DNA of 63,730 nt, the filler included, from Rozella allomycis CSF55 (lineage: Eukaryota): NCBI GenBank assembly GCA_000442015.1. It is 10 parts of 10 records of this genome, joined end to end, with 100 filler letters (N's around TTAATTAATTAA, not from the genome) between each part and the next. Parts side by side here need not be neighbours in the genome. Positions count along the whole stretch, not along the records: positions 1 to 12,046 come from KE560830.1; 9 more parts are not named here. One strand, 5' to 3'. Numbering within the stretch: position 1 is the stretch's first letter; each line of letters starts with the position of its first letter. Made by a program: the position numbers and the translations under genes. The notes under the pieces are model-generated. The model saw nothing but the letters and a program-made list of their open reading frames with translations. It ran no database searches and was not told the DNA's origin. Shown here piece after piece: positions 297 through 63,730 of this stretch.

Positions 297-2845
297 TTAT
301 TTGGGAGCATTAGAGTAAGGGTTATATGGAGCATTTTGATATTGATAACCCTGACTAGCCTGCCCCTGAAATTGAGGAGGAATTTGATTTTGCTGATAGG
401 GGTTAAAAGCTGGTTGCTGGTTGTAGTTAGGAGGGTACGGATTGCTTTGAGCATAGTTGTAGTTAGGACGAGGTTGTTGCTGGTATGGCTGTTGGTAAGG
501 TGCTGGAGCATACGGACCAGATTGATAGGGCTGCTGCTGAGGAGGAAACATTTGATAACCAGAAGTTGTGAATGGAGAACCTAAAATTGTTCGTGGATGA
601 AAAGAGTACCTGTGCCTGTTGATGATGAATAGTTGGCTGGCATTGCAGAGTTCCAGGTTGTTTGAGTTGAAGGGATTGAATTTGAGAATGATTCGATTTC
701 TTTTTCTAAATTTGAAATTGGCTTTTGAATGTCAGCGTAAAACTTTCATGATTTAACGATCTTTTTACTTTAATTGCTTCATCTACAAATGAACATAATT
801 TTTCGTATTCAATGTAAACGTTGTCTAAGTATGCAATAAATTCATCCTTTTCTTTCACTTTTCCACTTCCAAGTCCCTTTTGATGAATCTCTTGAATTAT
901 TTTGTTTTGAGCTAAAATATTTTCATTTATTTTGTTGGGGAATTCGTCGTATTTTTTGATTTCATGATCAATGACGATCGAAGGGTTTTGATTGTCATCG
1001 TTTGCCTTTTCCAATAGAGAAGCTAAATAAACTTTAATGAATGAATTTACAAATGTCATCAGATTGAACCAAAGATTCAATATTTTGTTTTATTGCTTTT
1101 AAAGAATCAACTAGAAAAGACAAATTTCCAATCAATTCTCCATCTGCAAGGGTAGGAGAAGGATGAAATGATTTAAATCGTTCAAGCAAAACATTTTCCT
1201 TTTGAATTAAAAGAATTAAAATACTTTAGATAAAATATCGATGCCTTGTTTGATGTTATTGAACAAGTTTTTGACTATTTCATCAGAGGCAGAGGCTTTG
1301 GACGTCAATTCAGAGTAATGCTGGAAATGTTTTTGAAATTTAGCTTTTATTTGATTATTTTCAAATTTCAAACTTATTTGACTCAATGTTTGACTAGTTG
1401 CATTTTTCATCTCATCTATTGTTTTCATTGATGATTCAAGTGCTAATAAACCCCCATTTTTCACAATCGATTTCATTTTATTTAAAACATTCGCTGGAAT
1501 TTCAACAGCTTGCAATTTCTGTGTTTCTGAAAAATCAGAAATCGTTATTGAACCAATTGTTATTTGGTCATCACATTGTCTAATTAATGGGGAAACAATG
1601 GATTCTCTTTGAGAGATATACAAAGTCAAACTATGATGAATAGAAAATGGAATCAAAGTAGAAAAAAGTGGGGTTCCGATTATTTCTGAAAAATTGGAAA
1701 CTAAAAATAGAGTTGGCTTGGCTAATTCCACCCTTTGAATTGACTGCAAAGTAGCTTCATTTGGAACTGGCATATGATAAATCACATCATTATCCTTTTC
1801 AGACAATGAAATCTCCTTTTTCAAAACACTCTCAAAAGTCTATAAATAATTTCAATAATCACATTTTTACTTTTAATTCTGACACAAGATTGGCATCCAT
1901 GTATTTTGATTCTAACAATGCGTTTTTGTTAATCTCCANCACCAATGCATTTTTGGTAATCTCCAACGCTACTTTCAATCGAGTCACAACCTCTCCATAC
2001 TCCCCCTGCGTTTTAGCATCATTCGCTTTTTTCATCATCGCCATTACCAAATATTTACATCCATTCCCAAACAAATTCGGTCCAAATTGCTTCCCAAACA
2101 CACTTCTCTTGGGATCACTCGCTTTCACAGTCTCATAACACAATTCATACATCTCCCCAGTCCTTGCAGCTATTTTAGCCAGCAATCCATCCTTCATCTT
2201 ATCCTGCATCCCCTTCAGCACATAACACTCTTGCGCTTTCGCTTGATACACCATCGTTAGAATATTCAAATTAACATCATTCACCTCACTATTAGGCGCT
2301 TCCGTGTTCAAATGCTTCTCCCTCACATACTGAAATATTCCACTCGCAATCTATCAAAATCACACAATCAAACTACCAGAAATGAATTGCATGCTCTTTT
2401 GATACTTTCACTATCAGTTTTCGGCTCCCTCTCGCCAACCAAACAATGCGCAACAGCTGCATTAAACAACGTACACGCCTTTTCATATTCCAATGACATG
2501 CTGCTGCCTATCCATACTCATCCATAAACTATCATACTGCTTTCACTCGATTTAAAACTACTGGTCCACGTAAACATCACCTTGATATTGTCTTGTCCGA
2601 ATTTGAACTTTTTTTCAATTTCAGTCAGCTGTCCATAATATCTAAATGATTTCATTCAAACTACAGTACTGGATACATCTATTGGCGTATTGGATACTAA
2701 CATCCACAGAAAGTACGCCGTTTCTTATCCCGTTGAGGCGCTGGAATTCCATGTCATATACACTCGGATCTTGCGCATATATTTGACGTATAAAACTCTT
2801 CAAAGGGTCTTCTAAATTCACCGCAGAAGGGCGCTTCAGTTCCAT
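297..2845 (-). CDS. BRO1-domain ESCRT-associated protein (ALIX/Bro1/PalA-Rim20 family), multi-exon
   Basis: Exon ORFs give Bro1-domain motifs (LKSFIRQIY, QAKAQECY, EYGEVVTRL, EKDNDVIYHMPVP), then V-domain-like helical exons and a Pro/Gln/Tyr-rich tail (297-551), joined by short GT-AG introns. Confidence 0.85.
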
Positions 2846-8334: not shown

Positions 8335-11300
8335 CTAATGCCTTCTTTGCCGACCCCTCCTTGAAGAGAGTCTTAAACTAGAAAGTTCGCTGTACCGTTT
8401 AGATTTGTACCAAGCGGTGAATGCACCCAGACCAGCTGCAGCAGAAACACCAGTGACTATTCCTACAATGATACCCGCAGAATCAGTTTCCTTTTCATGA
8501 GTGATTTCCTCTACCTTTGGAGGTGATTGACTGGCATTGTCAGCGGGCCTTCCTTGATTACTTTCATTTGAATTTGAATTTGGGACTATTATTTTGGCGC
8601 TCTTTTTCTTTGTTCGTTTTAGTTTTCTGCGCTTGGGTCTTAAAACTTTCTCCTTCTTTCGTGGTTTCGCTTTCGATTTAGGTACGTTTGTCTGAAGATC
8701 ATTGACTAGAACATCGTTTATGGGAAAGTCTTCAGTTACATTTTCCTCGTTATTTGATCTTTCTGATACTTCTTGCTGGTCATCTGTAGAGACTGTTGGG
8801 GCGCTTGTTATAGTTGCTTTAAGAGGATTATGAATTGGTTCTTGAATATTTACATTATCTTGCGTTGAAATTATCTTGCTAGAGTCCGCTTGTTTTGACA
8901 TTTCCTGTTTCTTAGCAATTGGGGAACTAGCTACTTTATTGGCCTTAAACGATTTCAAGTTTCTCGAATGACCAGCATTGCGATTAACATAGAGATCTAC
9001 TTGTTCAACTCTCTGCAAGATTCTCCGTGGTTTTTGACTTTCCTTAGTCTCAAAAATGCTTCTCATTGTTTGTGCAAACTTGCCCATCACTCTTGCCCCA
9101 AAGGAGGGTGTTTCTTCTGATTCTTCAGAAATTGCCTGAGGGGGCGATCTTTGTCCCACTGTGGAATCTTCATTCTGTGTTGGTAGTTCTTCATGGTCTG
9201 TTTGGATGCCAATAGATGTAGACTGGACATGCTCAGATTGCGTAGAAGATTCTTGAACTACTTCAGGAGGTTCTGTCTGTACGGCCAACGAAGAAAACTC
9301 TGGTTGTGTAGATACTGTTTGCACAGCGCGCGATGAAGACCCAGCAGTTTCAAATTGTGTAGAAACATCCTGTAATACTAGCGGTTCTGTTTGCATAGCA
9401 AACGAGGAAACTTCAGGTTGTGTGGCGTCTGTTTGCGCAGCAAAAGTAGAAGTTCCAGCGGGTTTCCATTGTGTTGACGTGTCTTGACTAACAGGACTTT
9501 CAGTCTGCATAGCAATGGTTGATGTCTCTAAAGGATCAAACTGCGTATCTGCATCTTGTAAAAGTGGAGTCTCAGTCTGCATAGCAATGGTTGATGTCTC
9601 TAAAGAATCAAACTGTGTATCTGCATCTTGCAAAAGTGGAGTCTCAGTCTGCATGCCAATGGTTGATGTCTCTAAAGATTCAAACTGCGTATCTGCATCT
9701 TGCAAAATTGGAGTCTCTGTCTGCATGCCAATGGAAGATGTCTCTAAAGGATCAAACTGCGTATCTGCATCTTGTAAAATTGGAGCCTCTGTCTGCATGC
9801 CAATGGAAGAGGTCTCTACATTGTCGCTTTGGGTGCCTGCATCTTGGACTGCCGTAGGTTCTGTCTGCACAGCAAACGAGATCAACTCTGGGCTTGCAGT
9901 TTGAATAGAGACATCTTTAGCTTCCATTACGTCTGTTTGAACTTCAATTTCTTTTGTGTTCTTGATAGGCGTGTCAGTCTGCACTTGCCTTGTCACTTTA
10001 TTTCTTTCCTTTTCTTCTAGACTCGTTTTAAGATCTTCCAATTCTCTCGAACACGCTTGAAAGTCATCGCTAGATTTAAAAGTCAATTTCTCTATTTGCT
10101 TGGACAAACCTAAATTTGAAAAGATTTAAATTGTTACGATTGATGTAATAAAAACTCTTTTGCGATGTTTCGTGAAAAGTCTGAATTTTCTTGGCGCGAA
10201 CTCTTAAATTATGCATCTTGCGTCTGACAGTTTCAGTATATGTTTCATCTGGGCGGGCTTCCATAAATGTGTCAAGTGGGTCTGGTTCTTCTTGCACTAT
10301 TTGACCTTCGGAAGCCTGCAGAGCTTGATTAGCTTGAGGTGAATTGTCGTCTTGTCCTTCCACTTCCACTTGTCCTTCTGATGTTCCTGCTACGATTTGC
10401 TCATCCTGTAAGTTAGCTTCATCAATTTCATGATTTCGTTTCCCAGAATCATCAAGGTTAGAGATAACTTCAGTTTGTTCTTCTGAAGGTGTTTGGCCAA
10501 CGTGATTGTCTTCACCTTGTTCTGCTCCCATTACCATTGGGTCATCTTGTACAATCGCTTTTTCAATGTCAACATTTTCCGCCTCAGAACCATTTTCAAA
10601 ATTAGGAGCGTTCATTGTTTCGATATTATTGTTGTCCTTTTGTTCTTCTGAAGGTGTTTGGATAACCTCATTGTCTTCACTCTGTTTTTCCCTTGTCACT
10701 ATTGGGTCATCTTGCCGCACTTGCCCAGTCCTTTCTTTAATTTCAACATTAAGCGGTACAGAACCATTTTCAAAATTGGGAACATTTATCGTTTCGATAT
10801 TATTGACGTCCTTTTGTTCTTTTGATGGTGTTTGACCTTCCACTTGTCCTTCTGATGCTCCTGCGACTGGTTGTTCGACCCTACCCTTCTCCTCCTTAAT
10901 TTCATCATTTCGCTTCTCAGACTCCTTGTCAAAATTCGGAATATTCTTCGTTTGACCATCAACATGCAGTTCTTCCGACACTAGAATATCGCCTTCTCCA
11001 TCTTCAATCGACGGTAAATCTGCATGATCAGTTAATCCGCCAACCTCAACATGGATTCGATTCAAGACAATGCCATGAGAATCTCCAGCAACATTTTCTC
11101 CCTCTTTTACTTTACATGCAAACTTGACAGGCGGTTGATTGGGTTTCAGTTTCACATCTTCAATATGATTGTCAGTGGCATGAGGTGCCATAATTGAATT
11201 GCAACCTATATTGCAACTTTTTAGTAACGTACCAGCACCTACCACGGCCTTTGTAGCTTTAACTTCCTTTCCCTTATCCTGCACTGTTAAAGACGTAAAT

Positions 11301-11756
11301 TCATGAGTGGCGGCAACCAACACATTCGGCTCAGCAACTTTTGTTGGAAATTCCGTAGTAGCACCTTTAATTGTTTTTTCGTTTTCGGCGGCTATATTCG
11401 AAATGCGAACATATCTTACCTTGATTGTCACTTTCTTGTTTCTCCTCTAAAATACCTATTTTTTTACAAAATGTCAGCTTACTGGCCTCGATTTGCACAA
11501 AAATCTGTCTCAGGTTTCGATAAGGTTTCAAGTCTTTAATACCACGTTCCAAAACAACTTCTTTCAACCACGCCTTTACACCTTTATGCGATTTTATCAT
11601 ATCTCGCGCATTTTTATTTATAGCCAACAGATTAAGCGCCCCAAGTTTTCTTTCTTGGAATATGTCTTCCATTTTACTCTTGATATCGTCATTGGCTATA
11701 GCCTCCACGAAAAATACATAGAAAATAAAAACACTTAGAAAGAAATACAATCTCAT
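8335..11756 (-). CDS. Predicted type I membrane protein (about 1100 aa): signal peptide, acidic repeats, coiled coil, about 22 QT/TQ motifs, basic patch, C-terminal TM helix
   Basis: ORFs 11367-11933, 10076-11431 and 8335-10107 join in frame via 28-nt introns GTAAGATATG..AATATAG and GTAACAATTT..AATTTAG. Starts MRLYFFLSVFIFYVFFVEAIA; TM segment GIIVGIVTGVSAAAGLGAFTAWY followed by KSKR. Confidence 0.8.
9500..9820 (-). repeat. 72-bp (24-aa) coding tandem repeat, about 4.5 copies
   Basis: Unit ETS(S/T)I(G/A)MQTETP(I/L)LQDADTQF(D/E)(P/S)L repeated nearly identically. Confidence 0.95.
10480..10880 (-). repeat. About 180-bp coding internal duplication
   Basis: QTPSKEQKDVNNIETINVPNFENGS / QTPSEEQKDNNNIETMNAPNFENGS / QTPSEEQ. 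Confidence 0.8.
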
Positions 11757-12046
11757 CTGGTGGCTGTTTTCAGGACCCCAGAATATAGCAAGGGGCTGTG
11801 TCATGTGACTAGAGCATATGCGGTACAGGACCCAGAATGATGGCCACTTTATGAAATATTTGCCAAAATCTAAATCGTCTACGCCATCGCGAATATTTAT
11901 GGCGCGAACCGTACTATTTACGTGTAAACCCACATGAAAGCTAATTTTAGAAGACTTGTTGATGAAAAATTAATCAATTTGTAATACAATTTTTAGTAGA
12001 TCTCTATCATTAAATAATTGCAATATAATCATAAAATGATAGCCCC

Positions 12047-12146
12047 NNNNNNNNNNNNNNNNNNNNNNNNNNNNNNNNNNNNNNNNNNNNTTAATTAATT
12101 AANNNNNNNNNNNNNNNNNNNNNNNNNNNNNNNNNNNNNNNNNNNN
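12047..12146. other. Artificial contig spacer (44 N + TTAATTAATTAA + 44 N); also at 35319, 46573, 48394, 50496, 53111, 56419, 58655 and 60605
   Basis: Identical six-frame-stop linker centred in every 100-nt gap. Confidence 0.97.
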
Positions 12147-13420
12147 TAACTATGGTTAATATTCCCCTGCTTCACCAATCTCTTCTGTTCTTTCAAATGC
12201 TTTATTATCTCCTTATCAACACCCTTCACATACTCTCCCTTCCACTCCCTCACTTGTTCAGTAAACCTTCCATCATCATCAACAGGACATGGAATCTTCT
12301 CATCCTCTTTTATTATCCCATTCTTCAAACACACTCTAAAATCATCTTCTCCAAACGCAGGTGCTTGGTGGACTATCCCTGTTCCACTGTCATCCTTCAC
12401 ATACCCATCGCCCAATATTCTGAAATTTCCACTTTCTCTTCTCTCTCCAAAATAATCAAACAACGGCTTATAATATCTTCCAACCAAGTCACTCCCCTTC
12501 ATCTTCTCTATCACTTTATACTTTTCCTTATTCTTCTTTTCTCCATACAATATTCCAACACACTTTTCTAACAAAATATACTTGTTTCCACTCTCCTCAT
12601 CCCTAATCTTCACATACTCATATTCTTCATTCACACACAACGCTAAATTAGATGGCAACGTCCACGGCGTCGTAGTCCATGCCAACACACTCACATCCTC
12701 TTCTCCTTCCAATGGGAAACTAACAACAACTGCCGGATCTATCGTATCCTTGTAGTTTTGATTGGCCTCAAAATTACTTAAACTAGTACTACATCCAGTA
12801 CTAAATGGCATAACCTATTCTTTTCACTTCACTCCCTTACCTTAAATCCACGATACACTTGGTCCTTTTCATACAACTGCTTAAACACCCACCACACACT
12901 CTCCATAAAACTAGGATCAAGCGTCTTGTAATCATTCTCAAAATCTATCCATCTCCCCATCCTCTCAACTGTACTCTCCCACTCCTTGGAATACCTCATC
13001 ACTATATTCCTACACTCCTCATTATACTTTTCTATTCCCATCTCCAACACCTATCTCAATCCACACATCCTCTTACTTGGCTGCGTGATGTTATCCCCAA
13101 CTTTTTATCAATCTCATACTCCACTGGCAACCCATGGGTATCCCAGCCAAACCTTCTTTCAACATAGAACCCTGTCATCGTGGCATATCTTGTCACTATA
13201 TCCTTTATAGTGCCAGCAAGCAAATGTCCATAATGCGGCAACCCAGTAGCAAACGGTGGCCCTATCTTCCACTATCTTGCCTCTTACCATCATAAAAACT
13301 ATAGATTGGTCGGTCCTTGGAAATTTCTAATGACTTTTGAAATGCATTTATAGAACGCCAGTACTCCAATATACGAACTTCCTCTTGCGCAAAGTTCATC
13401 GTTTTAGGCAACTGTGACAT
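12147..13420 (-). CDS. ILS1: Cytoplasmic isoleucyl-tRNA synthetase, 5' part (truncated by gap)
   Basis: [16 protein letters not shown] (HIGH motif), [39 protein letters not shown]. Confidence 0.95.
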
Positions 13421-40900: not shown

Positions 40901-43865
40901 ACTTTTAAACATTATTATATTCAAATTATTCAATGAATTCAAACATTCAAAATTCAAAATATTTTTATCATTCAAACTTTTATACAATCTTTCAATCTGT
41001 ACATTGTTTTCTGAAACTTTTTCAAATATCAACACTGACCCTGGTGTAAATGTTTTCTTTAAAATTATTTCTAAATACAATCCATGATGATCTGTCCCTT
41101 CTTCTATTTCAAAAAAGTCATCTCTATCAACCAAAAGGGGAGTAGTCAAGGGAGTGAATGGAGTCAATGGAGTTAAGGGAGAAGTAGACGGAGAATGATC
41201 ACCACTTTCACCTACTGCATCTCCCCTACTCTCTCCACCTTTACTCTCACTGATTAATTGCTTGGAAAATATTAATCTATATTCACCCCTCAATTTAATC
41301 TTCTCAAATGTCTCATTCCCCTTTTCTCTAAACGCCATATGCGCAATCAACAAGTACCCCTTCAGCGTCACTGGATCTTCTCTCGTTATTCTCACTACTT
41401 GGTCATCTTGATGCACAAACGTTTCAATACACTCATTCATCTCCACATGCAATCTATTCAGAAATCTCCTTGCTTGTTTAAACTCTGTATCCACTAGTTC
41501 ATACAATTTATCTTCCTTGACCAAGTCACGCTGCTTCAAGTACAATTCATCATAGCCATACACTGATCCAATAGCTGATCTGGTAAACGCTACTATACTC
41601 GTCAAGGGTAGTGTATCGCTAATTGTTCTCTTTTGATTTGGCATTTCATTGTCATGTGTACAATCCATATACAATGCATGAATCAATGATGAGTTTTTCA
41701 CTGTTACGCTATTTTTACCTTTTCAACTATTTAAACTATTCTTACCTACTATGATACCATTAGAGCTTTTATTACCTATGATACCATTAGTGCATCTATT
41801 ACCTATTGTTACACCTACAACTATTCTTACCTTTGAATTTCTCATTTTCAATTGCATTCTTGAATGACCCAATCGTCTGCCCACTCAGTTTATGACTAAT
41901 CCTACATTGCTCCGACACATCCCATGGCTGAATGCCTTCTCTAATCAATGAATTTATTCCCAANTTGAATTCTTGAATGACCCAATCGTCTGCCCACTCA
42001 GCTTATGACTAATCCTACATTGCTCAGACACATCCCATGGCTGAATGCCTTCTCTAATCAATGAATTTATTCCCAACTTTGACACAAATATCAAATCCTT
42101 CTCTTCTGACCCAGTAAACAGTTCAGCTACAACATACAAATCTCTCCTCACCCTCCTCCCTGCATCAATCAAATACTGCGCTACTGGAATGGGCGTTGAA
42201 TGGCAATTGTCAATCCTAAACCCATGGAATATCTCAGCCATCTTTACACTATACTCTCTCATATACTCCCACAAGATCAAATTATCTCTCTTTAATCAAC
42301 ATTGTTTATTAAATTTACTGGCTCTTTTCCATACCTCAGTTTCACACAGTCGCCCCAAATAATCACCTGTCGCAAGAAATACGCATTCGTTTCTGCAAAA
42401 TTATTCAATGGATCGCCATTCCAAATCCATCCATTATTCACCAACGCATATTTCTTTCCATTCCTCTCAAATCTCGTAAAATATGAATACAACAAGGGTC
42501 GCTCTTTACTCACTCTGCCCAACTTTGGCCCATTCTCCGCCAATCTCTCATACTTTATTCTATCTCTCATATTCTTTATTATCACTTCAACATCCTTGTC
42601 ATATTTCTCATAAATAGGCAAATTCAAGCCATTCAAAATCTCTAAATACTCCTTCATCACAACCCTCACATCTTCATTATACTTTAACAATTCATATGCA
42701 ACAAGTCTCTTCACTCGCACAGAATTTCTATCTTTTCCAGCGTCTTGGTACATTCCATTCTCTCGCAAATATTTAATCTTCTCTTCCAACTTCATCTCAC
42801 TCATCTCTCCATCCCTCTCCTCCATCCTATTCTCAAACAACTCCCTCATCTCTGCAATCGCTCTCTCAACATCAACAACAAAATACTCCCACAATTTATA
42901 CCGCTTCATCCACTCATTCTTAAACACTCCTATCACCTTGTCCAACTCTCGCTCATCTCCAATCTCTCCACTCAATCCATACCCCTGCATCCCTTCCCCA
43001 AACTCCAATATCGCCTCGTCCAACGCAAACGCTACCTTCAAATGCGGACTATTCTCCAAATTATACCCTCTACCTCACATCCACCAATCATTACCCGCAT
43101 CCGGATACTCCCTCAACCACTCCGCATTACTAGCCATATGGTTCCACACTACATCCACTATCATATACAACCCCCGCTTCTCCATCCCTCGCACAAACTC
43201 ATTCAACGCAGCATATCTCTCATCCTGCCTCTTCTCCACTCCAACCAGCCCATCATCCAACATCAACGGATCATACAGCGAATACGGCGACCGACTCTCC
43301 CCCTTTTGCTGCACAGGACACAGATGCACCATATTATACCCATGCTCAAGCGCATCCTCCATATACTCGCCCCATCGCTCAATCCCTCCCATCCACTTGG
43401 GCACCATCGTCTTCAACACAATCTCATCAACCTCAATCCCAATCTTCGGCGGGATCTGGAAATACCCACTATGCGAATGGTTCCCAAGTCTATCCACATA
43501 CCTCATACCACAAAATCTACAATGTTACCGGTACTCAAAGGTTCCTGCATACATCACATTCGCCAACATCCCAAACGCATCCGTCTCGCAGTCATAGTAC
43601 AAATCAATTCGCGCAAACCGTCGCCGCTCAAATTCAGACCTCTCTCTTCCAACTTTATCACTTACGAATAATTGCATTCAATGTATCCACCACCATGCTC
43701 CAGACACGGTGAACCGGCCGTTACCGTGAATTTCAACGTTATCGGGAAATTCAAATGCGGGAATCGGATAAACTAGAAAGAATTGCATTTCTTCTTTACT
43801 TGGATGGACTTTGATGGAGATCCATCAGCCTCCAACGGAATTGTTACTGTTATCGATTCTTGCAT
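37939..43865 (-). CDS. GDB1: Glycogen debranching enzyme (4-alpha-glucanotransferase/amylo-1,6-glucosidase), multi-exon
   Basis: [93 protein letters not shown]. Confidence 0.96.
38778..38891 (-). other. Compound intron: 4 abutting GT..AG micro-intron units (29+29+29+27 nt)
   Basis: Removing all units joins TTA G|GC ATG to give the conserved [10 protein letters not shown]. Confidence 0.85.
39435..39614 (-). other. Compound intron: 6 abutting GT..AG micro-intron units (31+31+28+31+28+31 nt)
   Basis: Removing all units joins AAG G|GT AAA to give [17 protein letters not shown]. Confidence 0.88.
40255..40367 (-). other. Compound intron: 4 abutting GT..AG micro-intron units (29+30+27+27 nt)
   Basis: Removing all units joins GCT G|GA CTG to give SLAAGLPHF. 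Confidence 0.85.
41719..41830 (-). other. Compound intron: 4 abutting GT..AG micro-intron units (28+27+30+27 nt)
   Basis: Removing all units joins AAA G|GT AAA, in frame to [12 protein letters not shown]. Confidence 0.85.
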
Positions 43866-45137: not shown

Positions 45138-46283
45138 TTAGTTATTGTATTTGTAAATATCATTTTGCAACAGCATGTAATCGACTAAAAATTCCAGATT
45201 TTTGATTCGCCGCAGGTCAAAGGATGAAAGATCCCAATTCTCATTCCTCGATCGTATTAAATTTTCTACCAAAAATGCAATGCTTTTAAATCGATATCTA
45301 ATGGGCTTTGGATTTTCTAGTGCTGACTGTAAGAATTCGCTCACAACTTCAGAATTGCTAGAGTGTTTAGCTATCCAAGATTTCATATCATCAGAACCTC
45401 CTAGAATCAATTTTCTGCTCTTTGTAACATTCTTGGAATCCTTTGCTGACTTTTTGATACCCGAGGATAGTTTTGGTCCACCGCCATCCCTTTTCAAAAT
45501 TGGAATTTGCAAGTCTAAACTCGCATGAAGATTTTTTGCGACGTTTAGATCGTGTGATGAAACTTCATAATAATGTCTCACCCTTGCTCCATAATCCACA
45601 CTTGTGGCCACATGTGTTCCAAATTTCTGAATGAAAAATTTGTACCCAAACCACCTAGAAGAATCAAGTTGAGTCGTTCTTAAATCTGCAGGAAGAAGTG
45701 AGTTAAATAGAAATAACATATCTTCAGCGTGCTTAATTTTGACTAGATCATTGTCATCTATTTGTATTGTATATAGAACATTCATTTTATCTTCTAGATA
45801 ACTAATGATGCTTTTGGAAGAATTGTTTCGCGGCATTGATTCATTTCTTAAACTTAGTGATAACCCTAGTCCGCCTTTAAGCAAAGAAAAAAAATACGAC
45901 AGGCTCTTTTTAACATTGAAACTGAACGCATTCGTTAGATAAGTTGTGTATGAAGAAAAACTGTCAATAATTTCATTACTTTCATCGTAATTATTGATTT
46001 TAGAATATTTAATGTTCACCTCGTCAAGATCATACAACTGTGTTTCCGGCTCAAAATTAAGGAATAATATCTTGTTTCCAGTAAGGGTATGTCCATGTCC
46101 AAGAAAGCTTTTAGCGTTTGAGATATTACCAGCTACTTTTTCAATTTCTTTGTGGCGCGCGTAGAGAGTCTTTAATTTCATGAGAGCGTCACTTTCTTGT
46201 GTAAATATTCTCTTTGATTTTATTGCTGAAACTGTATTTCCAGTCATTTCAAAAACAAGAAACAGAAAGACCAATAAAATCAT
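45138..46283 (-). CDS. Secreted MACPF (perforin-like) domain protein
   Basis: Signal peptide MILLVFLFLVFEMTG, LGHGHTLTG, MACPF signature variant FIQKFGTHVATSVDYGA, ILGGS and PKPIRYRFKSI; intronless 381 aa. Confidence 0.8.
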   Translation of the reverse strand: MILLVFLFLVFEMTGNTVSAIKSKRIFTQESDALMKLKTLYARHKEIEKVAGNISNAKSFLGHGHTLTGNKILFLNFEPETQLYDLDEVNIKYSKINNYDESNEIIDSFSSYTTYLTNAFSFNVKKSLSYFFSLLKGGLGLSLSLRNESMPRNNSSKSIISYLEDKMNVLYTIQIDDNDLVKIKHAEDMLFLFNSLLPADLRTTQLDSSRWFGYKFFIQKFGTHVATSVDYGARVRHYYEVSSHDLNVAKNLHASLDLQIPILKRDGGGPKLSSGIKKSAKDSKNVTKSRKLILGGSDDMKSWIAKHSSNSEVVSEFLQSALENPKPIRYRFKSIAFLVENLIRSRNENWDLSSFDLRRIKNLEFLVDYMLLQNDIYKYNN

Positions 46284-46672
46284 ATTTTCACACTGACAAG
46301 GGTGTATAAAAAAGGCGCAGCATCATTCCATAATCAAGCATGACAGTTCAGTGCTCATAATCGCCTTGACCATTTGAAAATAAATAAAAAAATTTAAGAT
46401 TTTCTTTTCCATTTTTATTTACAATCCCACCTTCCTCTGGATTTTCCAAGCCACATCATCGATTGACCAATGAGACAATTCGCAGGGGCGATTTTCCATT
46501 TATTAAAAAGGACGCATATTAATTCTTACAAAAGAGGGTTTTATGGTGCTGTTATTGGATGTTCCTTTGCTTNNNNNNNNNNNNNNNNNNNNNNNNNNNN
46601 NNNNNNNNNNNNNNNNTTAATTAATTAANNNNNNNNNNNNNNNNNNNNNNNNNNNNNNNNNNNNNNNNNNNN

Positions 46673-58754: not shown

Positions 58755-59720
58755 AATTCAATAAATTACCTTTAACGTTTACTTCTTTTTAGTTCTACAG
58801 TATACCAATTTCATAACCGAATTCTTCAATTAAACGAAGCTTTATATCCATATGTTTTGTTCGAAATTGTTGAACAGGGTTTTGATGCTACTGCGATCGT
58901 GGATTTTTTGCCTTGCAATATTGACATACTACCTGTGACCTTAAAATTTAATTCCTTCCGGATATTTCTGAAATTTAATCCTTCCCCAATACACCCAACC
59001 AAAGCAATATATTCGGCTTCAGTACTACTTAGAGCAACAAATTTTCAAAATCCAGTTAGCAATACCGATATCTTTAATATCGAATTTTGACTTTATGATT
59101 TCCTTTACACCTGAAATCATAAATGTATTATTTGATATCAATAATATATCATCAACACAAATCAAAACAATCAACAGTTTTCCAGATGAATCATATCGAT
59201 ACATCATCATACATGGTTCACTTTTGCAGGCAATTAGTCCGGAATCTGACAAATATTGACTAAAAGTTTTGAACCATTCCGACGATGCTTGATGTAAACC
59301 ATAATGAGATTGCAATAATTGAGCAACCATTTCAACTTTTGTTTCTTTGTGAAATTCTTCAAAACCGTATTAATATCAATTTGTTCATGATCCACCCTTG
59401 TAAAACAGAAAGAGAAAGAATATATCTAACAGATTAGATTCGGACGACAGGGGAAAAAGTGGTTTTATAGGTTGGTTACCCCATAGCAACCAAGAGAGCC
59501 TTAAATCTTTTTATATACCCATTGTTATGATCAAATACCCATTTTGATGGAATTACTTTTCTATTAGGAGGTGGAGTAACAACATTCCATGTATTATGTT
59601 TGTTTAAAGATTCCATTTCCTCATACATGGCTGTTATAAAATACTGTCCAAATGGTCCTTCCAAAGCTTGTTTTACTGATTTCGGTGGAGATTGAAAATC
59701 AGATCGGTTGATTAAAACAT
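58755..59720 (-). mobile_element. Degenerate Ty1/copia reverse transcriptase/RNase H fragment
   Basis: AMYEEMESLNKHNTW..KVIPSKWVF..RFKALLVAMG; YGLHQASSEW; ICVDDILL; KFDIKDIG; TKHMDIK. Confidence 0.85.
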
Positions 59721-60099
59721 TATTTGGTTTTGAATATTTTGATTTAGATTGAGAAGGTCATTTAATATTTTCTTTTATAGGTCTTGGTAGAGGGTAGATA
59801 TATTTACACCCGGGGTGTGCTTCACCCCTGGCAAAAAAGTCGGGGTAATGAAGAAGTATGATTGGGGGATGCTGGGCTGCGCCAAAATGTCACATGTCAC
59901 GTCATATTTTATGTGCATTTGAGAGGCTTAGCTTTTAGTCTAAAAATATCTTTCTACTTAGAATATTTCTCAAAAATCACTTTTGTCCTGAACATGTAAA
60001 CTCATAATATCGATACACTGTATGTCTGATATTATAAAGTTACCATTAATAAAAAGTTTATGACCTTGTCTACTACTCTTTCTAACTTTTACTTTGTAG

Positions 60100-60604
60100 T
60101 ATTGTACATACTGTATGCGTGCTTTTTGAATTTATTACGTGGCAAATTGAAATCTCTGACTTTAACATGACTGCGCGGCCAATTGTTGACGCAGTTTTGC
60201 AATGGGACTATATTTGCCTAGTAAGCAAATACTGGAACAGGAAAATTATTTCCATGGAAGGAGTGCGTGATGTTCATTGTTCCTGAATTGCGCGGGATAA
60301 TACCAAAATCGTTTTCTCAGATATTCTCGCATATATATGCCTCGCCGTGTAAGCGATTTTACTTAGAAATATACAACGAGGAAGCGAGAGATTTATTGAG
60401 CAAAACACCTAAAGGGTTGGAACTAAAAGAACATCCTGAAACCGGTGTCTATGTGCAATATTTATCTAATTTTGTTGTAAAGAGTATTCAAGAAATAGAA
60501 CAATTGATGAATGTTGGTCAAAAGAATTGCAGCGAGCATGAATGAGCATTTGTCACGATCACAATTAATTTCCACCATAACAGTTGAGTCTTCTGAAACT
60601 GCTG
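60100..60604 (+). pseudogene. Kinesin-2 (KIF3-like) motor-domain pseudogene fragment
   Basis: ARPIVDAVL, broken P-loop TGTGK, PELRGIIP, YLEIYNEE.RDLL, LELKEHPETGVYV; switch I degenerate (LSRSQ); frameshifts and deletions. Confidence 0.75.
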
Positions 60605-61618
60605 NNNNNNNNNNNNNNNNNNNNNNNNNNNNNNNNNNNNNNNNNNNNTTAATTAATTAANNNNNNNNNNNNNNNNNNNNNNNNNNNNNNNNNNNNNNNN
60701 NNNNAAATTACTTTTCAACCTATTCTACACTGTCAATTCATTGATCTATCTTTCGCAGACGACAAAAGTCTGTGTTTTTTTAATGTCAATTCATTTTATA
60801 ATTTAGCTCAGTTTTTGAAAAACAAAAGATTATGAATCAAAAAGTAGACGTTAATCGTCTAACAAGCCTCGTAGTGCTCGTTAAATCGGACGGGGAGTTT
60901 CTAATTAAAAAAATTTCTTCACACAAAACAACATAGAAACTAATTTTATTTAAGGTATTTATGCCAGTCTTCTCAGAATCATGGATGCATTCCTTTTTGC
61001 TAATGTGAAACTAATTTTTAATCTGAGCCTGTGGTATACCACATTAGTCTCAATATTTTGCAGATTGGACACTGTATGCGCGATACTTTTAAGGAAAGCC
61101 AAAGAATCTACGTCGAATTTCCACCCCGATCCCTCCGAANTGGGAAAAATATCAAACCTTTGTTAAAATGGTAAAAAAAAGGAAAAGAAAGAGAATAAAG
61201 GAGAAAATAACGGAAGAAACGTGGTTGTAAAAGAAGCAAATTTATTGGAAGAATGCTTTGAAAGGTCTCCAAGTGTGAACTTGGAGACCTATAAACTTTG
61301 TCAAACCCCGCTTACTTTTTATGCAAACTTCGCTATATTTCGCCTTATGGGATTTCTAGTGTGAAAATAAAGTGCGACAAAGCTTATCTGATGGTATCTA
61401 GGAAAGAATCAGGGTATAAGAAAAAATCGGAAAATAAGTAAACAATCCGTTACTAATCTCAACTGTTTATAAGTTTTAATAAGTTTCTTTATTAATTGAC
61501 TAATACGTACCAAGAAAAACCAAATCAATCCATTAAAAGAAACCACATTTATTAAAATTTANATTTTCCAGTTTCCTCAGTCCTACGAATCCTGAATCTC
61601 ACGACATAAATCATGACT

Positions 61619-63730
61619 TGTTGGGATAATCTTCCAATGGAACCAAGACAGTTAATCTTTAAATTCAAAAGATTGAATCACTTCAAACAGCGCGCAGGCA
61701 AAAACACTATCCACAGATAATTATTCATCAAACTCATTCTGGAAGGGAGCTTTGCCGCCATATCGTGANTAGAGAGTTATGAGCTATAATAGTGACATGA
61801 TTTCCGGAAGCTCTGCTACAAAGATAGAGAAACTTACAGGCTCTGCTAACTACCATTCATGGAGTTGTGACTACCAAGCATTGCTCGAAGACCTCGACCT
61901 GGACCAATATCTCACCTCCAAGGCTTACATGTCCAATACACCAGAAAACGTCAAAGAACACACGAAAGCATTTGCCAGGTAGAAATTGAGTCTCAATGAC
62001 TACTACAAAGCGAATGTCGAAAATTGTACCACTGTTCTCGAAGCATGGAATCTCCTTCACGACAAATTGGCTCCTAGCAACACGGTAACCCAGCATCACG
62101 CAAGACGACCATAATGACCCTGTTTATTATAATCAAGAAAGTATTACTCAGTTTGTGAAGCGAGTGGAGCAGTGCTTGATTGACTTACGCAGAAGCGGCG
62201 ACATATTAGATGAAGAATCCATATTGAACACCATAATTGCAATTTTCCCTGATTAATTGAAACCTTTACAGTATCACGTCCGTCAATTGGAGTCCAAAGA
62301 AAGAACACTCTCCAAGCTAATCCAACTACTGAAAAATGAAGCTAATGAAGCCGATTTGAAGGCCGCTTCTACGTTCATGCTCCTTGCTGATAATGCTTTT
62401 ACTGCGTCGACTCAACCATTCGTCTCAAGATGTGCTATTTGCGGTCTCACCAATCATGACACGGCCTCCTGCAATCACAAACCACATTGGTACATCCCAG
62501 GCAAGTCCAAATTCTTTTTCTGCCAGATTTGTAAATCCAATGATCATTTTATCCAACATTGCCCTACCAGTCCGCCACCAAGACCTGGCTTCACACATCC
62601 CCGTGCCCCTTCCAACAACTTTAATCAACAAAGAAGATTCACCAATTACAACAACAATCAAAACAACAACATCAAGTGAAGCCACTCCAAAAACCAATCC
62701 CAGAAAGCAATCATGTGAAAACTGAAGACCCATTCACACCAGACCTTTTTGTCAATTGCCTCTATAGCGACCTAGACATCATTCCAAAGACCGAAGTTCA
62801 CCATGTAACTACTCAAGAAACCTTTGCCAACTTGGAATCTCTCACTGCCTTAACCACAGGTAACGAATGGATCATTGATACAAGTTGCACCTCACACATG
62901 ACCAAGGACCGATCAGTTTTCAAGACTTTCACTCCACGTAATGACTACAAGATAAGAACAGCAAATGGAGGCATCATGAACGCAGAAGGTTTCGGACAAG
63001 TATCACTCCAAGTACTCTTCCCCGAACACTATCAAAAACTTTCTCTTAGAACACTTATTGTATGTACCCAAATCGACAACAAAATTTTGTATCTATTAAA
63101 GATCCTAACATCAGAAGATTGGACCTTCACTTCATTAAAGGAGTGTGCCATTTCGTTGATCCCGACACCAATTCCACAACGCTCAAGGCCGTCAACAATG
63201 GAAAATTCTACGTAATAAATATCGTTCATGCCTGCTATATTGCATCTGCAAGCCTTCAGAAAATTAACACTATCAATCTATGGCACGCCCGACTTGGACA
63301 CGTGAATGAAGCAACTATCCGCGCAATGTTCAAGAAGAATTCAGTCAATGGAATGAGTACTTTCATTGAAAAAGATAGTTTTGCCTTTTGTGAATCATGC
63401 GCCCTTGGCAAATCGACTCGAGCAAGTTTCCCGCCAAAAAGCAATCGCACTACTTATATCGGTAAATTATGGCACACACATCTTTTCGTTCCAGTACAAA
63501 CTAGAACACCTTCTTGGACATTGTATGGCGTCACACTTATTGAGAACAATTCTGGTTTCACCTATCTGCAGCTCCACGAAAAGAAATCCGACGTCATTGA
63601 AGTACCCCCAACAATGATCAAAAAAATACAATCAGAACACTCATTCAGAATATGAACTTTAAGATCAGACAGAGGTGGCGAATATGTTATCGGAAGTGTG
63701 AAGAAATTTTTGGATGAACAAGGTATCCAT
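61619..63730 (+). mobile_element. Degenerate Ty1/copia LTR retrotransposon (gag, protease, integrase); runs off the window
   Basis: KIEKLTGSANYHSW, two CCHC knuckles, WIIDTSCTSHM, LWHARLGH..CESCALGK, IRSDRGGEY; stops and frameshifts; GTTATGAGC PBS-like site at about 61776; LTR start tentative. Confidence 0.9.

Follow-up and report, generated by a model that had tools for sequence, protein, structure and literature searches.

Gene model and predicted topology

The window analysed here is a 63,730-nucleotide (nt) stretch of the genome of Rozella allomycis CSF55. Three open reading frames (ORFs) on its minus strand overlap end to end (11367–11969, 10076–11446 and 8335–10125) and together encode a protein with an array of Q-centred units resembling the motifs bound by LC8 (dynein light chain, Dyn2). 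The whole coding region including the stop codon (8335–11756) equals EPZ35468.1 (O9G_005230), a 'hypothetical protein' of this strain, and the 1083-amino-acid (aa) public sequence (P0034) was rebuilt letter for letter from 11483–11756, 11239–11391, 10138–11205 and 8338–10091. A partial public model from another assembly with the same strain label (P0021) likewise joins exon 1 to exon 2; two annotation pipelines therefore link these exons, and one links all of them. P0021, the 90% cluster of which includes EPZ35468.1, starts 109 aa further upstream, and in the window the upstream frame used by that start is closed by a stop codon.

The introns were derived from the exon set that reproduces EPZ35468.1. 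Intron 1 (11392–11482) is 91 nt long (GTAAGC...TAG), and in this region the model of the other assembly makes two removals instead, of 27 nt (11456–11482) and 28 nt (11392–11419). The last intron (10092–10137) is 46 nt long (GTAACA...TAG), and a 28-nt alternative (10110–10137) also keeps the frame. The frame ahead of the first Met is open for ~85 codons in ORF 2 and ~66 codons in ORF 3, which for ORF 2 indicates that an upstream exon is needed. Introns of ~28–31 nt are also inferred for other genes of the window, among them introns of ~29–31 nt in the glycogen-debranching-enzyme and BRO1-domain genes (43045–43077, 42290–42320 and 1840–1870, minus strand), from Pfam profile coordinates that run on across adjacent ORFs. 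As the short introns of the array gene fall into the same size class, its ORFs appear to belong together. Three separate genes were rejected on account of the open frames ahead of Met, the joined public models and the short introns. Of the one sequencing run with this species label, which contained hardly any of the sequence words sought, no contig matched the gene. A splice model with two 28-nt introns, which would yield 1121 aa, was superseded by the public model without affecting any of the features discussed here.

The gene starts only 290 nt from the end of its contig (12046). The gaps in the window, at 12047–12146, 35319, 46573, 48394, 50496, 53111, 56419, 58655 and 60605, consist of 44 N, TTAATTAATTAA and another 44 N, a six-frame-stop spacer. 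These spacers join separate contigs, and hence genes beyond 12046 are not neighbours of the array gene. In the other assembly the gene breaks at the repeat and is split over two contigs. When the assemblies were compared over 8338–11389, it was found that exon 2 is 99% identical (to P0021), whereas exon 3 is identical at 437 of 465 residues (94% to the partial Rozella protein P0004, with 6% of residues differing) and contains a 2-aa indel. The divergence of exon 3 could mean that the assemblies contain different alleles or haplotypes, that the gene has a second copy, or that its C-terminal half evolves fast. Within the array, 11 of 178 compared residues differ, none of them in an xQT anchor by our count from the alignment, which is too few to test constraint.

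Topology was assigned from hydropathy and the positive-inside rule, an established principle, rather than with a dedicated predictor. Only two hydrophobic segments are present, comprising residues 1–23 and a 23-residue stretch 25 residues from the C-terminus. The first corresponds to a signal-peptide-like N-terminus, MRLYFFLSVFIFYVFFVEAIA (11694–11756), with a maximum Kyte-Doolittle value of 2.25 and a possible cleavage site after AIA. It is flanked by R on its N-side and by acidic residues (EAIANDD) on its C-side, favouring an N-terminus-in orientation according to the positive-inside rule. The second corresponds to a predicted 24-aa transmembrane helix, AGIIVGIVTGVSAAAGLGAFTAWY (8407–8478), with a maximum Kyte-Doolittle value of 1.92; AlphaFold2 also placed a helix here (P0001 residues 547–571). 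The residues that follow, KSKRYSELSSLRLSSRRGRQRRH, belong to a 23-aa basic tail (8338–8406) with nine K/R/H and one acidic residue, which is predicted by the same rule to be on the cytoplasmic side of the parasite membrane. The more positive flank of each hydrophobic segment is thus on the side consistent with an exoplasmic middle.

Between these two segments, residues 1–21 are followed by ~90 aa that are helix-prone and then by ~150 aa for which AlphaFold2 gave no fold; its prediction for the 165 aa at the start of exon 2 was unusable, with a predicted local distance difference test score (pLDDT) of 28.8. Next is an acidic region (10355–10957, boundaries approximate and set by eye) of ~3–4 degenerate 55–58-aa repeats (xQTPSEEQKDxNNIETxNxPNFENGS...), the ~200 aa of which contain one IQTP site and two NGS sequons. 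A helical region (10009–10237; residues 466–526) identified by AlphaFold2 and by a phmmer search of the Protein Data Bank spans the last intron, and the predicted helix itself (P0001 residues 13–37) has a pLDDT of ~73–76, i.e. modest confidence. The array (9196–9996; residues 531–798, 267 aa by translation) follows, its first unit beginning ~10 residues after the helix. Beyond the array is a 172-aa spacer (8680–9195) of low complexity, probably disordered, for which AlphaFold2 gave a pLDDT mostly below 50 and two short helices, and then a polybasic patch, KSKAKPRKKEKVLRPKRRKLKRTKKKSAK (8593–8679), with 19 K/R in 29 residues, 38 residues ahead of the membrane helix.

No relatives of EPZ35468.1 outside Rozella were found in protein, ESM Atlas and metagenome searches. 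Nothing passed in Pfam for the three exon products, the only match being Baculo_E66 at E=0.051, below its cut-off. ESM Atlas yielded no usable match for exon 2 or the array, and when metagenomes were scanned, the C-terminal 284 aa gave pattern matches at 80 stretches and the whole protein at 78, none of which encodes a relative. No mention of EPZ35468.1 was found in the literature searched. We interpret EPZ35468.1 as a lineage-specific single-pass type I membrane protein with a predicted exoplasmic array; its gene model and predicted topology are well supported by sequence. An earlier, sequence-only reading of this DNA had proposed that the three ORFs form one gene of an intracellular parasite, encoding a signal peptide, one C-terminal transmembrane helix followed by basic residues, and an array on the outside. 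These proposals held: R. allomycis is a wall-less intracellular parasite, the public protein was reproduced exactly from the joined exons, hydrophobic segments are confined to the two ends with a tail containing nine K/R/H, and the rules-based prediction from both sets of charge flanks agrees on an outside array.

The Q-centred array and known LC8 clients

The array consists of 22 Q-centred units with successive spacings of 14, 12 (14 times), 14, 12, 12, 14, 13 and 12 aa. Fourteen units are of the [V/I/M/A]QT type and conform to the pattern [S/T][S/T]-hydrophobic-[A/G]-[M/V/I/A]-Q-T-[E/D], position −1 relative to Q being M in six, V in five, I in two and A in one. The remaining eight are of the TQ[F/S/W] type, with the pattern Q-D-A-[D/S]-T-Q-[F/S/W]-[D/E]. 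Considering all units, Q at position 0 is invariant (22/22), and D/S/T at −4 (20/22), D/E at +2 (19/22), T at +1 (14/22) and A/G at −2 (12/22) are common; position −3 is hydrophobic, not K/R. Tandem Repeats Finder identified a recently expanded 72-bp (24-aa) repeat within the array (9500–9818; 4.4 copies, 93% matches), in which one xQT unit and one TQ[F/S/W] unit were amplified together.

The sequence-only reading had described about 22 QT motifs at mostly 12-aa spacing, generated in part by a recent 72-bp expansion and preceded by a coiled coil. The spacing and the expansion were borne out. There are indeed 22 Q-centred units, but only 14 are xQT, and a [V/I]QT anchor is present in 7 of 22 (13 of 22 when M is also accepted at −1), such that the number of canonical motifs had been overstated. 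A helix is predicted ahead of the array with modest confidence, and its best Protein Data Bank match is the coiled coil of Swallow, making it a putative coiled coil. A two-copy complex prediction for residues 452–560, comprising the helix and the first motifs, bears neither way (score 0.21, mark 0.32).

Fourteen [TVIMA]QT motifs were observed in the array compared to 2.1 ± 1.4 (maximum 9) in 10,000 residue shuffles. The narrower pattern [TVIM]QT[DEP] occurred 11 + 1 times in the two large ORFs of the gene and was absent from the other ORFs of the window, which total 25,648 residues; ORFs of at least 60 aa were considered, 253 over all six frames when those of the array gene are counted. When near-identical copies were collapsed, 16 distinct units remained, and the columns of lowest entropy were 0 (invariant), +1, +2, −4 and −1. 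The composition of the array (net charge −38, S+T 28%, Q 13%, P 6%, almost no basic residues and ~2 prolines per 24 aa) suggests disorder, in particular its net charge and proline content. AlphaFold2, run on the single sequence, predicted low-confidence strands through most of the array, with a pLDDT of ~50–57 compared to 30–40 in the adjoining spacer; the model containing the array had a mean pLDDT of 44.7 and a predicted template modelling score (pTM) of 0.29.

The published LC8 motif is given as [D/S]-4 K-3 X-2 [T/V/I]-1 Q0 [T/V]+1 [D/E]+2 (PMC3078936), and its specified positions include each of the best-kept columns of the Rozella units (−4, −1, 0, +1 and +2). In vitro selection for LC8 is reported to prefer Ser at −4, Gly/Ala at −2 and Glu at +2, and pre-dimerised peptides are reported to bind with 80- to 500-fold higher affinity. 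According to PMC6607443, the residues at −1 and +1 are buried, there is a preference for D/E/P at +2, and deviations in the anchor abolish binding in the peptides tested there. The published flank rules also ask for a hydrogen-bonding D/S at −4 and disfavour a bulky residue at −2 and a proline ahead of the anchor. The Rozella xQT units fit these rules at −4, −2, 0, +1 and +2, and differ at −3, which is hydrophobic, and often at −1, where M occurs. The anchor and flank preferences expected of a multivalent LC8 client are therefore present: T occupies +1 in 14 of 22 units, whereas five motifs suffice in Nup159, D/S/T at −4 and D/E at +2 are the rule, and A/G is found at −2 in 12 of 22. The eight units with F/S/W at +1 are not canonical. 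The array also departs from LC8 clients in location, as it is predicted to be exoplasmic rather than in the cytosol or nucleus of the same cell.

The Protein Data Bank was searched with phmmer using the array, the whole protein and the 80-aa helix region as queries, with matches listed at E≤10. The array gave two matches, the better of which was Nup159 (chain 7tbi_Y1, E=0.027); the IQTD, VQTD, TQTV, LQTE and VQTF motifs of Nup159 and Rozella units 1–5 are aligned in register. The helix region matched 6xor_A, 'Protein swallow' (E=0.0064, 20.5 bits; next match 0.44), in an alignment that crosses the last-intron junction with one gap. With the whole protein, the only two matches were Nup159 and the Swallow self-association domain (E=0.17 for the latter). 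Each of these E-values is weak, and the weight is carried by the fact that both matches are LC8 clients and that they occur in the right order.

In Nup159, five motifs are described as binding five Dyn2 dimers to form a 20-nm rod (PMC4315244). Nup159 and the Rozella protein share consecutive [I/V/T/L]QT[D/E/V/F] motifs at 12–13-aa spacing and a helical region beside the array, which in Rozella is a putative self-association region. They differ in the number of units (5 compared to 22, 14 of them xQT, in Rozella), in the position of the helix (downstream of the array in Nup159, upstream in Rozella) and in location, as Nup159 is cytosolic whereas the Rozella array is predicted to be exoplasmic, in a protein with a signal segment ahead of it and a membrane helix behind it, both of which are foreign to Nup159. 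A Nup159/Nup214 orthologue was ruled out, since no beta-propeller, FG-repeat region or Nup C-domain is present (no Pfam family; one FG dipeptide). In Drosophila Swallow, a coiled coil (residues 205–275) is reported to precede the LC8 site (PMC3995210). The order is the same as in Rozella, with a coil, putative in Rozella, followed a few residues later by an LC8-type motif, but Swallow is a cytosolic RNA-localisation factor with one LC8 site, and the likeness is weak (~17 identities in 60 columns by our own count) and most likely convergent. Human ASCIZ (ATMIN) was described in 2018 as having, with 11 sites, the most of any LC8 partner (PMC5963919). Like the Rozella protein it contains many TQT-type sites, which lie in a disordered region in ASCIZ and in a putatively disordered one in Rozella; however, ASCIZ, a transcription factor of the nucleus with zinc fingers, has irregular linkers and low occupancy, whereas the Rozella array is regular, longer and predicted to be exoplasmic.

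A further resemblance concerns the non-canonical unit QDADTQFDPLET, which is almost identical to HDADVQYDPVET, repeated in a Radiomyces Mcp5_PH protein, a member of a cytosolic dynein-anchor family (Num1-type cortical anchor). This likeness hints that the TQF units may be real cytoskeletal motifs too. Within residues ~620–1100 of this protein (Radiomyces spectabilis XP_051424957.1, P0016), two canonical sites, TQTE and IQTD, precede dozens of [T/V]Q[S/H/Y] units, among them the 12-aa array of HDADVQYDPVET; light chains may bind here, in which case a dynein anchor would contain a so far unrecognised binding array.

Taken together, the Nup159 register, the Swallow-like helix and the identity of the best-kept columns make the likeness to LC8 clients stronger than the sequence-only reading could have known. 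The LC8-client-like design of the Rozella protein, a helix plus a regular array, is well supported by sequence. We conclude that the part of the protein predicted to be exoplasmic has the design of a multivalent LC8 client, with a Swallow-like helix and 22 Nup159-like units, and that this multivalent LC8-type array is in what would be an unprecedented place.

Proposed recruitment of host LC8 and competing explanations

One explanation for this arrangement is that the array recruits host LC8 at the parasite surface, to which we assign a probability of roughly 0.4. Rozella forms an unwalled plasmodium inside Allomyces and is described as phagocytosing host cytoplasm (PMC6317583, PMC10953367), and host mitochondria gather around its surface. 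On the wall-less plasmodium or in phagocytic cups, the ectodomain would meet host cytoplasm. Bound by host LC8 dimers, the xQT units would adopt beta-strands, and two parallel chains would be joined by the dimers into a stiff rod of bead-on-string form, the length of which, by proportion to the Nup159 rod, would be tens of nanometres. Such a rod would hold the N-terminal acidic and head region off the parasite membrane and could serve as a spacer or tether to host membranes, organelles or dynein-associated structures, while the membrane-proximal polybasic patch could add binding to acidic host surfaces. Rods of this kind might space or tether the host cisterna and mitochondria at the interface, or hook host dynein-associated cargo for phagocytic uptake. 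The complete proposal, namely that the largest known LC8-docking array (14–22 sites, compared to 5 in Nup159 and 11 in human ASCIZ), with a Swallow-like dimerising helix ahead of it, stands on the naked Rozella surface and is converted by host LC8 into rigid rods of ~50–90 nm for tethering or cargo-hooking, is as a whole less likely than not.

Related and comparable parasites provide partial precedents. In microsporidia, which are related to Rozella, membrane proteins of the parasite surface are described as contacting host cytoplasm and as clade-specific and fast evolving, and the surface of Theileria is reported to recruit host EB1, a cytoskeletal hub. The Rozella protein resembles these microsporidian membrane and Theileria schizont surface proteins in being clade-specific and fast evolving, in carrying targeting signals and in belonging to a parasite that lives in host cytoplasm, as well as in a short linear motif that possibly recruits a host cytoskeletal hub. 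We know of no surface protein of an intracellular parasite that uses LC8 or a multivalent array, and a literature search on hijacking of LC8 at parasite surfaces found nothing.

Several observations weigh against recruitment of host LC8. Exposure of the array to host cytosol is doubtful. In Rozella the protoplast reportedly occupies a compartment, and a related aphelid remains on the outer side of the host plasma membrane, from which its own membrane is separated by a fibrillar zone; a host membrane may lie between the parasite and host cytosol. Three membranes, one of the parasite and those of a host cisterna, reportedly make up the Rozella interface. Passage through the secretory pathway may lead to O-glycosylation of the S/T-rich array, and the anchor threonines would then be buried. 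Eight of the 22 units lack T or V at +1 and six have M at −1, and the Protein Data Bank E-values (0.027 and 0.0064) are weak and were obtained with a small library.

The specificity of the motif was also called into question by arrays in other organisms. A search of 1.84 billion representatives returned 15 proteins at E≤0.001, of which one was a Rozella fragment and 14 were from elsewhere: two from Orbiliaceae, four Gram-positive surface proteins, one each from Mesostigma and Radiomyces, an ankyrin-PDZ protein, and five low-complexity proteins without QT arrays. As the query was itself 12-aa periodic, the common 12-aa period of these matches is partly ascertainment. The four Gram-positive proteins have polysaccharide-lyase or mucin-binding domains and LPXTG-type ends (Pfam LPXTG anchor in P0008 and P0018; P0017 named LPXTG; MucBP domains and an LPKAG end, by eye, in P0013). 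The extracellular 12-mers of these proteins, SDSGTQTDNPST among them, are closer to the LC8 consensus than the Rozella units, with strict matches in 19/24 and 15/17 units of Gram-positive arrays compared to 10/16 in Rozella. Bacteria have no LC8. Arrays of this type thus exist where LC8 cannot be the reader, indicating that the motif alone is not specific.

Four Orbiliaceae proteins (P0005, P0006, P0007 and P0014; Orbilia oligospora AOL_s00006g465 and TWF703_002624, Arthrobotrys musiformis and A. conoides), two from the above search and two from a separate one, have a signal-peptide-like start and 22–33 x[I/M/L/V/T]QT cores, mostly at 12-aa spacing, suggesting that there may be an extracellular reason for such arrays. 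Columns −4, −2, 0, +1, +2 and +4 are kept in both the Orbiliaceae and the bacterial arrays (Q0 and T+1 fixed by selection). The Orbiliaceae proteins share P at +4 with the Rozella units, but differ in having a conserved 450-aa N-domain, a long C-domain and no membrane helix, as well as E at −4 and commonly Pro at −5, and these fungi are not intracellular. They form an uncharacterised family of ~1100–1300 aa from nematode-trapping fungi, whose N-domain lacks any Pfam match; a literature search by one locus tag found no mention. In Mesostigma viride P0015, one hydrophobic segment is followed, within residues ~470–670, by 16 copies of ATGMQTDAPSLP, a 12-aa MQTD array.

These arrays, which weaken the motif as evidence for LC8, also support an ordinary extracellular stalk or coat, in which the array would be an extended, possibly O-glycosylated spacer and the likeness to LC8 motifs would be coincidental or a shared physico-chemical optimum of soluble linkers. 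The structure could belong to a zoospore or plasmodium glycocalyx, or to fibrillar material of the host-parasite interface. This explanation is a realistic one, short of being probable. A signal segment, repeats and a membrane helix constitute the standard plan of a surface stalk, and near-identical QT[D/E]xP 12-mers occur as linkers just upstream of the wall anchor in the four Gram-positive proteins, and comparable 12-mer arrays are found in the four signal-peptide-bearing Orbiliaceae proteins. In the Gram-positive linkers (Actinotignum timonense WP_459475883.1; hyaluronate-lyase-type P0008 and P0018), 12-aa [D]-x-G-T-Q-T-[D/E]-x-P repeats separate, as in Rozella, the functional domains of a secreted protein from its anchor in the membrane or wall; they differ in being near-perfect recent repeats with T at −1 and no upstream coiled coil, and LC8 cannot be their partner. 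The S+T content and net charge of the array, the NGS sequons of the exon-2 repeats, the fibrillar zone of the aphelid and the compartment attributed to the Rozella protoplast are likewise consistent with a stalk. However, a stalk does not predict that diverged units keep the LC8-specified columns with Q invariant, that they match the Dyn2-binding motifs of Nup159 in register, or that a Swallow-like helix lies immediately upstream. Fungal signalling mucins of the Msb2/Wsc type have very high S/T (and P) in their repeats, and the 28% S+T and 6% P of the array would be low for such a protein. The D-x-G-T-Q-T-D-x-P linkers of P0008, P0013, P0017 and P0018 constitute a useful negative control for motif-based LC8 prediction.

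Alternatively, the protein could be a client of Rozella's own LC8, if a signal-less isoform, e.g. from Met29, were tail-anchored with its array in the parasite cytosol; LC8 would then dimerise and stiffen it on the surface of an organelle. This explanation would remove the topological paradox and fits the LC8-client-like design, and Rozella, which makes flagellated zoospores, should have LC8. The moderately hydrophobic C-terminal helix (1.92), 23 residues from the end and followed by a very basic tail, corresponds to a pattern of mitochondrial and peroxisomal tail anchors. Met29 (11670–11675) has A at −3 and G at +4, compared to C at −3 and A at +4 for Met1 (11754–11759), and leaky scanning past Met1 to this stronger context could give a signal-less isoform. 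Nevertheless, the hydrophobic N-terminus is present in both public models, the frame is open well upstream of Met29, and the charge flanks of both hydrophobic segments agree on an exoplasmic middle; this explanation is improbable. Least likely is a self-folding beta-solenoid or amyloid-like fibre, in which 24-aa strand-turn-strand rungs with Q and T ladders would form a partner-free rigid extracellular rod: the predicted strands of the array, with a pLDDT above that of the neighbouring spacer, and the invariant Q at a fixed period, reminiscent of the Q/N ladders in functional amyloids, are in its favour, but model confidence is low, and the net charge, near-absence of basic residues and prolines of the array point to disorder unless cations are bound.

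Other features of the window and implications

Elsewhere in the window, a minus-strand ORF at 45141–46322 contains a MAC/perforin (MACPF) domain (E=1.6e-16); a pore-forming-type MACPF protein could be of interest in an intracellular phagotrophic parasite. Fragments of a copia-type retroelement (RVT_2, Pol beta-barrel and GAG-pre-integrase) are present on both strands at 59028–63652. At the edge of the contig following that of the array gene, a minus-strand ORF (12147–12814) resembles by eye the editing-domain region of isoleucyl-tRNA synthetase, with a faint Pfam match to tRNA-synt_1 (E=0.031).

LC8 is among the most conserved cytosolic proteins, and this conservation would make it a universal handle for a parasite. 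Should the array prove not to bind LC8 or not to be exposed, the finding would serve as a caution that perfect LC8-consensus arrays arise on bacterial and fungal extracellular proteins, and hence that motif-based LC8 predictions need topology filters. If recruitment of host LC8 is correct, Rozella would be the first eukaryotic parasite to hijack LC8 multivalently from outside its own membrane, and the Orbiliaceae arrays of nematode-trapping fungi might be secreted LC8 binders too. Given both binding and exposure, the Rozella array would be the longest natural LC8 array and would extend LC8 hijacking from the single motifs of viruses to multivalent structural use by a eukaryotic parasite. How host membranes and mitochondria are held at a wall-less parasite surface is a question that Rozella shares with microsporidia, and the protein described here is a concrete, testable candidate for that function.

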